Under the pieces are notes generated by a model that was not told the DNA's origin, ran no database searches, and was given only the letters and a program-made list of their open reading frames with translations. This document shows positions 22,641 to 22,940 of a stretch of 64,000 nt of DNA, piece by piece. The DNA comes from Escherichia phage ev_rybdy3. The DNA lies in the sequence record PQ819470.1; one strand, given 5' to 3'. A program made the translations under genes and the position numbers. Numbering within the stretch: position 1 is the stretch's first letter; each line of letters starts with the position of its first letter.

Positions 22641-22940
22641 ATGAGTTGGGGTGGTGTAATATCCTTAATCTGTATCTTCCTTGTCTGTGTGGCCCTTACA
22701 GGCTGCGTACAGAGCCGTCCTGATGGGTGGTGTGCAGTAGCAGTGGATGGTATTTGTGTATCTCGCTGGCATAAAGGTGAGAAGGTTCCTTCTGGTGAGA
22801 TTGATATGCGCTGGAACGGGGCAACCTGCTCTAATGCTAACCCTTCTATTAATGAAGAGAAGTCTACGCCAGACAATGTTGTGATTGATACAGCGTTGTG
22901 GTGTGGTGGCTCTACGATTACAACCGGTAAGGAGTGGTAA
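22641..22940 (+). CDS. Cys-rich lipoprotein (possible superinfection-exclusion or envelope protein)
   Basis: ATG after AGGAGG SD; signal peptide with lipobox VALTG|C; many Cys in mature part. Confidence 0.5.
   Translation: MSWGGVISLICIFLVCVALTGCVQSRPDGWCAVAVDGICVSRWHKGEKVPSGEIDMRWNGATCSNANPSINEEKSTPDNVVIDTALWCGGSTITTGKEW

Follow-up and report, generated by a model that had tools for sequence, protein, structure and literature searches.

The outer-membrane complex LptDE(M) has been solved by cryo-EM with the phage lipoprotein Rtp45 bound to it (Dunbar et al. 2025, PMC12685063; PDB 9RPS). Rtp45 sits at the periplasmic outer-membrane interface, near strands 5-8 of LptD, where a beta-sheet is made up of its residues 30-35 and residues 318-323 of LptD; its Cys30 and Cys38 are joined by a disulfide. 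A long hairpin of the protein runs up the LptD lumen and displaces extracellular loop 4 (EL4) by up to 20 Å, so that docking of the receptor-binding protein (RBP) on LptD is prevented (PMC12685063). The same study reports 35% identity between Rtp45 and the superinfection-exclusion (SE) protein of phage Oekolampad, and its authors warn that AF3 models of the Rtp45 fold and of its complexes are unreliable (PMC12685063). The dependence of Oekolampad on LptD is experimentally established, and in seven BASEL siphoviruses a locus of the rtp44/rtp45 type tracks LptD dependence, as studied with lptD resistance mutants (Maffei et al. 2021).

The receptors given for Kuraviruses in the current literature are the O-antigen and the LPS core, the latter by analogy with the short fibres of T-even phages, and current models end at recognition of the O-antigen by the long fibre and an assumed LPS-core step. 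A prior link between Kuraviruses and LptD was not found in the literature searched, with much of the subscription literature lying beyond that search. Kuravirus-type phages are often isolated, and they are used in therapy and biocontrol work.

Here we describe a lipoprotein gene of Escherichia phage ev_rybdy3 (PQ819470.1), located in the stretch of 64,000 nucleotides that was analysed as a whole and that is called the window in this text. The window is the reverse complement of positions 11849-75848 of PQ819471.1, the record of Escherichia phage ev_rybdy8, and 13.8 kb of the genome lie outside it. The phage is Kuravirus-like (phiEco32-like) and falls within the Gordonclarkvirinae.

Results

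The lipoprotein gene and its early-region setting

The features of the locus are collected in Table 1. The gene begins with ATG and comprises 99 codons followed by a stop codon at 22938-22940, giving a precursor of 99 residues. It is a real gene and no chance ORF: it was found intact and at full length in all of the 96 phage records that carry it (E ≤ 1e-20), the dN/dS of its core (0.15-0.30) corresponds to purifying selection, and its product matches the Pfam family PF24052. As the sigma-factor marker of the subfamily is present in 98 records, these 96 make the lipoprotein gene a core gene. The orthologs phi32_106 and SU10_0104 were already annotated as "putative (phage) lipoprotein". An antisense frame of 136 codons at 22556-22966 (-), in overlap with the tRNA as well as with the lipoprotein gene, was dismissed as a mechanical and unsupported ORF.

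Table 1. Positions in the window of the lipoprotein gene, its parts, its flanking elements and the spanin pair.
Feature	Position	Strand	Remarks
tRNA-Arg (anticodon TCT)	22545-22620	+	Found by ARAGORN; ends 20 nt upstream of the lipoprotein ATG
Shine-Dalgarno AGGAGG	22630-22635	+	Strong; 5 bases before the ATG; read from the sequence
Lipoprotein precursor gene	22641-22940	+	Pfam PF24052 (Rtp45) member; ortholog of phiEco32 phi32_106 and SU10_0104
Signal peptide, residues 1-21 (MSWGGVISLICIFLVCVALTG)	22641-22703	+	n-region without K/R
Lipobox L-T-G-C, residues 19-22	22695-22706	+	Cys22 is the predicted lipidated mature N-terminus
Rtp45-like conserved core, residues 26-60 (RPDGWCAVAVDGICVSRWHKGEKVPSGEIDMRWNG)	22716-22820	+	Alignment with Rtp45
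Variable insertion, residues 61-89	22821-22907	+	Bracketed by Cys63 and Cys88; hairpin tip in the model
C-terminal strand GSTITTGKEW	22908-22937	+	Returning arm of the long hairpin; family motif SG-S/T-V..G-KEW
i-spanin gene of the overlapping pair	54119-54469	+	phrog_1152, Rz-like spanin
o-spanin candidate of the overlapping pair	54354-54614	+	Lipobox ORF

The 3-kb region around the gene is 100% identical to that of ev_rybdy8 (PQ819471.1); its identity to Kuravirus phages, among them KBNP1711, SU10, NJ01 and Paul, is 89-96%. In KBNP1711 (KF981730.1) the lipoprotein is 100% identical to that of the window and the sigma factor only 82.6%, a contrast between the two sequences that suggests exchange of early-region genes in a mosaic fashion.

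The original prediction had placed the gene in the early region beside a tRNA-Arg gene, and this location holds. The tRNA-Arg(TCT) gene lies directly upstream, in a position that is syntenic in the annotated records of phiEco32, SU10, SU7 and ECBP2, and the lipoprotein gene belongs to a block described, in secondary statements, as early for phiEco32 and SU10. Two strong sigma-70-like promoters of near-consensus sequence (TTGACA-17-CATAAT) were detected at 14671-14699 and 15162-15190 (+), on the strand of the lipoprotein gene. The eight neighbouring genes all fall into PHROGs families of unknown function, so that no local partner could be assigned.

Other features of this region were also recorded. 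Between positions 14000 and 27000 of the window there are 17 terminator-like hairpins, around twofold the 8.1 found in shuffled sequence. Just downstream of the lipoprotein gene, two tandem paralogous genes of 73 aa each (23198-23419 and 23429-23650, +) both belong to phrog_6570, and they are followed at 23660-23833 (+) by a gene for an acidic protein of 57 aa with 11 Cys (phrog_13157). A protein of 61 aa with paired CC/CxxC motifs (phrog_18461) is encoded at 21931-22116 (+). Judging from their sequences, the 57-aa and 61-aa proteins look like small zinc-binding early proteins.

Signal peptide and cysteines

The precursor had been described as having a clear lipoprotein signal peptide and, after it, a mature part of 75 residues with seven Cys. 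The lipobox LTGC and the hydrophobic stretch preceding it are indeed present, since the N-terminus MSWGGVISLICIFLVCVALTG, ending just before Cys22, contains a hydrophobic core of 15 residues with a mean Kyte-Doolittle value of 3.0. The word "clear" is, however, too strong for an n-region (MSWGG) that has zero Lys or Arg, where the PROSITE-style rule asks for one K/R among residues 1-7. This K/R-free n-region is common to the orthologs of MSWGG type in the Gordonclarkvirinae, and nearly all the other family members carry K/R; the efficiency with which the lipoprotein is exported is therefore uncertain. The G-C of the lipobox is kept in 81 of the 82 family members aligned, and the Val at position +2 after the lipobox Cys predicts sorting to the outer membrane. 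The cysteine count had to be corrected, because seven is the number for the whole precursor, with C11 and C16 inside the signal peptide, and the mature protein (78 residues, 8.4 kDa, pI 4.9) has five (C22, C31, C39, C63 and C88).

Relation to Rtp45

The lipoprotein matches PF24052 ("Phage_lipoprotein") over the complete profile (positions 1-80 of 80) with 117.1 bits and E = 3.4e-34, well above the gathering threshold of 27 bits, and Rtp45 itself is a member with 128 bits (E = 1.3e-37). It also matches phrog_4281; in NCBIfam no model was found that matches either the lipoprotein or the DUF6453 protein described below. When the PDB was searched by sequence with phmmer, chain D of 9RPS, that is Rtp45, was the sole meaningful match (E = 1.2e-13), the others at E ≤ 10 being spurious repeat proteins, among which those with armadillo repeats had zero significant domains. 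With the window lipoprotein as query, tblastn gave weaker matches in T1-like siphoviruses, which in phage Rtp fell exactly on rtp45, and the reciprocal search from Rtp45 recovered the Gordonclarkvirinae at E about 1e-9.

Over the mature parts, the window lipoprotein and Rtp45 are 48% identical, compared with 41% between Rtp45 and the pSf-2 protein, which is of the Oekolampad type, so by sequence identity the window lipoprotein is at least as near to Rtp45 as the SE proteins of Oekolampad type are. An alignment of 14 sequences revealed end-to-end homology, with the lipobox G-C, RPDGWC, G.C, W, G..VP.GE.D.R..G and a C-terminal SG-(S/T)-V...G-KEW as the elements in common. In a larger alignment of 82 sequences, all the invariant or near-invariant residues of the family are present in the window lipoprotein. 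The Cys30-Cys38 disulfide of Rtp45 is matched by its Cys31 and Cys39, in two alignment columns that are Cys in 82/82 members, and its residues 31-36 align with Rtp45 30-35, the strand that pairs with LptD 318-323. The family is small, amounting among 1.84 billion proteins to 96 clusters at 90% identity and only 20 representatives at 50%, mostly encoded on phage-sized contigs. The lipoprotein genes of Rtp, Rogue1, pSf-2 and mEp021 are found beside gpJ and immediately precede the RBP gene.

Two other exclusion lipoproteins were compared with the family. Cor of phage T1 was considered as a member and rejected, as it aligns essentially through the signal peptide only and reaches 17.3 bits on PF24052 against the cut-off of 27. 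T5 Llp, to which the original prediction had likened the protein, appears neither as a chain in the PDB sequence search at E ≤ 10 nor as an entry among the 50 Foldseek matches listed.

Predicted fold and the Cys-bracketed insertion

The AF2 model of the mature protein, produced from the 82-sequence alignment, has a pLDDT of 89.5 and shows two hairpins, a stapled one at the N-terminus and a long one, the arms of which correspond to precursor residues 52-65 and 86-98. When this model was compared with the PDB by Foldseek, 9rps_D was the sole clear match (probability 1.00, TM score of 0.79 normalised to Rtp45), with all others at E ≥ 1.

The proteins of the Gordonclarkvirinae carry an insertion, with 13-38 residues where Rtp45 has 5, and in the window protein its length is 29 residues. 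The AF2 model places the insertion at the tip of the long hairpin, and it is hypervariable, with three length classes in the subfamily that give forms of 93, 99 and 108 residues. In the 82-sequence alignment both extra Cys are present in 18/18 members with a long loop, and neither of them in 63 of the 64 with a short loop. This joint occurrence of the Cys pair and the long loop across the family argues for a second disulfide, Cys63-Cys88, which would staple the insertion. A loop of 29 residues at the modelled hairpin tip could change or even abolish the fit to LptD. The window protein is, in summary, of a known kind, and represents a new architectural and genomic variant of the Rtp45 family.

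A DUF6453 gene beside the tail-needle gene

Within the 64-kb window no ORF similar to the Rtp44-like RBPs or to DUF6453 was found (best E = 0.2). When a profile of four RBPs of the Rtp44 type was run against the genome, a candidate partner was detected outside the window, at PQ819471.1 7132-8163 (E = 3.8e-16), encoding a protein of 343 aa annotated as "membrane protein" (JIDBFKNK_00007). This protein matches Pfam DUF6453, the family to which Rtp44 also belongs, over profile positions 15-289 of 291 (E = 3.1e-23), and in a phmmer search of the PDB it matches chain C of 9RPT, the LptD-binding RBP of phage Oekolampad, with E = 3.1e-9. An AF2 model of a representative 98% identical to it (pLDDT 84.5) had 9rpt_C as its only match (E = 2.5e-13, TM 0.83, rmsd 3.2 Å). 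As a control of specificity, DUF6453 is absent from the FhuA-dependent phage T1.

The candidate partner is the ortholog of SU10_019 (gp19), and its gene comes directly after that of the tail needle (gp18 in SU10), the two spanning PQ819471.1 6162-8163, and positions 6589-8590 of the SU10 locus for SU10_018/SU10_019. The needle carries a Phage_Tail_Tip domain of the lambda J type, and the same domain ends the J-like protein Rtp43 (residues 971-1099), encoded just before rtp44. The link between gp18 and Rtp43 is drawn because of this shared Pfam domain, as direct BLASTP between both proteins yields a weak coiled-coil match only (E = 7e-5).

DUF6453 proteins at ≥60% identity are present in 91 records. 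In the Gordonclarkvirinae the gene is conserved in nearly all members, invariably with the needle gene on one side and the ejection-protein genes on the other, and a divergent SU10-like metagenomic contig of 100.5 kb has the same needle-DUF6453 arrangement and the lipoprotein gene too. The lipoprotein and DUF6453 genes thus occur together in one genome, but they are not adjacent beside a J-like tail-tip gene as in siphoviruses, being around 45 kb apart with the DUF6453 gene in the late region. Their variants are also combined differently: the identities of lipoprotein and DUF6453 protein to those of the window phage are 73% and 96% in SU10, and 99% and 61% in NJ01. By these sequence comparisons the two assort independently among Kuraviruses, which fits a factor acting on a conserved receptor and not a co-inherited module.

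In the mass spectrometry of SU10 virions, in which 34 proteins were identified, gp16-18 and gp20-24 were detected and gp19 was not, and gp19 is nowhere mentioned in the text or the supplementary text of the SU10 cryo-EM paper. In our view, a tip protein of low copy number and around 37 kDa could be missed, and could be masked in gels by the capsid protein of 38.5 kDa.

A pair of the same kind was noticed in siphoviruses of the genus Webervirus infecting Klebsiella, where a lipoprotein of the Rtp45 family and a DUF6453 protein are both present with their genes unlinked. In Klebsiella phage vB_KpnS_Tin1_ER1 the lipoprotein gene (5995-6222) is beside a DNA methyltransferase gene. The presence of the two genes suggests that LptD is used by Klebsiella phages as well.

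Discussion

A role of the lipoprotein in superinfection exclusion or receptor masking, as originally predicted, gains computational support from its end-to-end homology with Rtp45, from the match of its predicted fold and from the homolog of LptD-type RBPs encoded in the same genome. The window protein is a putative exclusion lipoprotein of the Rtp45 family and a predicted blocker of LptDE. The reading that we favour, with a probability of around 0.7, is that the early lipoprotein would block LptDE in the manner of Rtp45, that its cognate RBP would be the DUF6453 protein, and that LptD would be the terminal receptor of Kuraviruses. We infer each of lipidation, LptDE binding, exclusion, the function of gp19 as a virion RBP and the use of LptD as receptor.

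According to this proposal, the lipoprotein would be expressed early, exported, lipidated at Cys22 and anchored in the inner leaflet of the outer membrane, where it would bind the LptDE lipopolysaccharide translocon from the periplasm as Rtp45 does. Its long beta-hairpin, which in Kuraviruses would bear an extra disulfide-stapled loop at the tip, would be pushed into the LptD lumen and displace EL4, in such a way that RBPs requiring LptD could not bind. Neither the progeny of the phage itself nor other phages that depend on LptD would then adsorb to the infected cell or, later, to its debris, and the RBP to which this block is matched would be the DUF6453 protein, ortholog of SU10 gp19, encoded beside the tail-needle gene.

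The extension of this model to the podoviruses of the Gordonclarkvirinae in general (Kuravirus, Suseptimavirus and relatives) has, in our estimation, slightly better than even odds. It would have these phages use LptDE terminally, with gp19 as the RBP on the tip of needle gp18 and the lipoprotein, with its stapled hairpin extension, as the cognate exclusion factor. If so, LptD use would be new among short-tailed phages, to judge from the literature searched, and a complete siphovirus module made of J tip, RBP and exclusion lipoprotein would have been transplanted to a podovirus and then split into late and early parts. The proposal would also account for gp19 of SU10, an unassigned structural gene, and for the needle's proposed role as a trigger. 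The occurrence of an Rtp45-type lipoprotein together with an Oekolampad-type RBP in nearly every member leads to a specific prediction, namely that LptD is the receptor. Since lptD is essential, we suppose that resistance mutants may be dominated by loss of the O-antigen, a possible reason for LptD having been missed.

The lipoprotein could instead serve heterotypic exclusion only, barring competing siphophages that depend on LptD, in a Kuravirus that makes no use of LptD itself and in which gp19 has an assembly or non-virion role. We regard this as unlikely. The failure to detect gp19 in SU10 virions or to place it in the cryo-EM model speaks for it, as do the independent assortment of the lipoprotein and DUF6453 variants, the unlinked position of their genes and the published work that indicates O-antigen and surface glycans as Kuravirus receptors. 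Against it stand the presence of DUF6453 in nearly the whole subfamily at a fixed place between needle and ejection-protein genes, the unique match of its predicted fold to the LptD-bound RBP, and a needle tip domain of the J type, as is also found ahead of the siphovirus RBP gene. Retention of the lipoprotein gene as a core gene in 96 records, with the marker in 98, also agrees better with self-protection than with an accessory role in competition. Retargeting is another reading, to which we give a distinctly low chance: the Rtp45 fold would have been kept and its stapled loop adapted to another outer-membrane protein or to a periplasmic function, the lipoprotein being neither an LptD blocker nor an exclusion factor. 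The large hypervariable insertion in three length classes and a mature-part identity to Rtp45 of only 48% would agree with this, but the lipoprotein has kept every conserved residue of the family as well as the LptD-pairing strand, an RBP of the LptD type co-occurs, and the window protein is no farther from Rtp45 than the Oekolampad-type SE proteins.

A role in host takeover, in which the elongated hairpin would plug LptD and stop the export of LPS and O-antigen early in infection, with exclusion as a side effect, appears improbable to us. The hairpin of Rtp45 does fill the LptD lumen (PMC12685063), the hairpin tip is longer in the window protein according to the AF2 model, and the gene lies among early host-takeover genes, going by secondary statements. 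On the other hand, Rtp45 has been co-overexpressed with LptDE in E. coli, where leaky expression led to an excess of Rtp45, which suggests tolerance without proving it. The last alternative, an o-spanin or other lysis lipoprotein, is hardly credible. A small lipoprotein predicted in the outer membrane would suit such a function, and the original prediction had argued against it from a spanin pair elsewhere in the window. This pair is borne out, as the i-spanin matches phrog_1152, the overlapping lipobox ORF ends at 54614 and the spanin census includes a complete overlapping pair for phage of phiEco32 type; its presence rules out the o-spanin role for the lipoprotein. Moreover, no i-spanin partner adjoins the lipoprotein gene, whose neighbours encode small early proteins, and the early region is far from the holin and endolysin genes. 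As regards the pair itself, the o-spanin ORF of the GenBank record starts at an internal Met (window position 54441), downstream of its lipobox, and the full candidate (MRKLNQFFIMSALVMSMSAC...) starts at 54354, overlapping the i-spanin.

The favoured reading, with LptD as receptor and the lipoprotein as its blocker, would also have practical consequences. As LptD is conserved and a drug target, phages that depend on it and phage proteins that bind it matter for phage steering and inhibitor design, and in cocktails Kuraviruses may exclude LptD-dependent siphophages during mixed infections.

Comparison with known systems

T5 Llp is, like the window protein is proposed to be, a small early outer-membrane lipoprotein that inactivates the phage's own receptor (FhuA) from the periplasmic side, and the window gene likewise lies in a block described in secondary statements as early. 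The two differ in mechanism and receptor, as Llp acts by allostery on a TonB-dependent transporter and Rtp45 by steric displacement of loops (PMC12685063). The likeness to Llp thus stands as a functional analogy only, as no sequence similarity is detectable. T1 Cor, which blocks FhuA, resembles the family in that it is a small SE lipoprotein and that its gene belongs to the RBP locus, here of a phage of the Drexlerviridae, but it has no mature-domain motifs of PF24052.

Rtp44 and the Oekolampad RBP (PDB 9RPT chain C), like SU10 gp19, consist of DUF6453 over nearly their whole length, and their genes follow one that ends in a Phage_Tail_Tip domain. The differences are an identity of only 21-23%, the siphovirus J fibre as opposed to the podovirus tail needle, and the absence of gp19 from virion proteomics. 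The SE lipoproteins of the Oekolampad (bas18_0026) and pSf-2 gp20 type belong to the same family as the window protein and have a partner RBP of the LptD type; they differ in being of the short-loop class, with three Cys and an N-terminal motif NGDC instead of PDGWC.

The structurally characterised homolog is Rtp45 of Escherichia phage Rtp (UniProt Q333D9; PDB 9RPS chain D). It has a 5-residue loop where the window protein has 29 residues and a second Cys pair at the predicted hairpin tip, the signal peptide of the window protein differs in having no K/R, and rtp45 is directly upstream of the RBP gene and next to gpJ, whereas the Kuravirus gene is early, after a tRNA and around 45 kb away. Both proteins share membership of PF24052, the lipobox, the predicted outer-membrane sorting signal, the RPDGWC...G.C disulfide hairpin, both arms of the long hairpin and the co-occurrence of a DUF6453 RBP.
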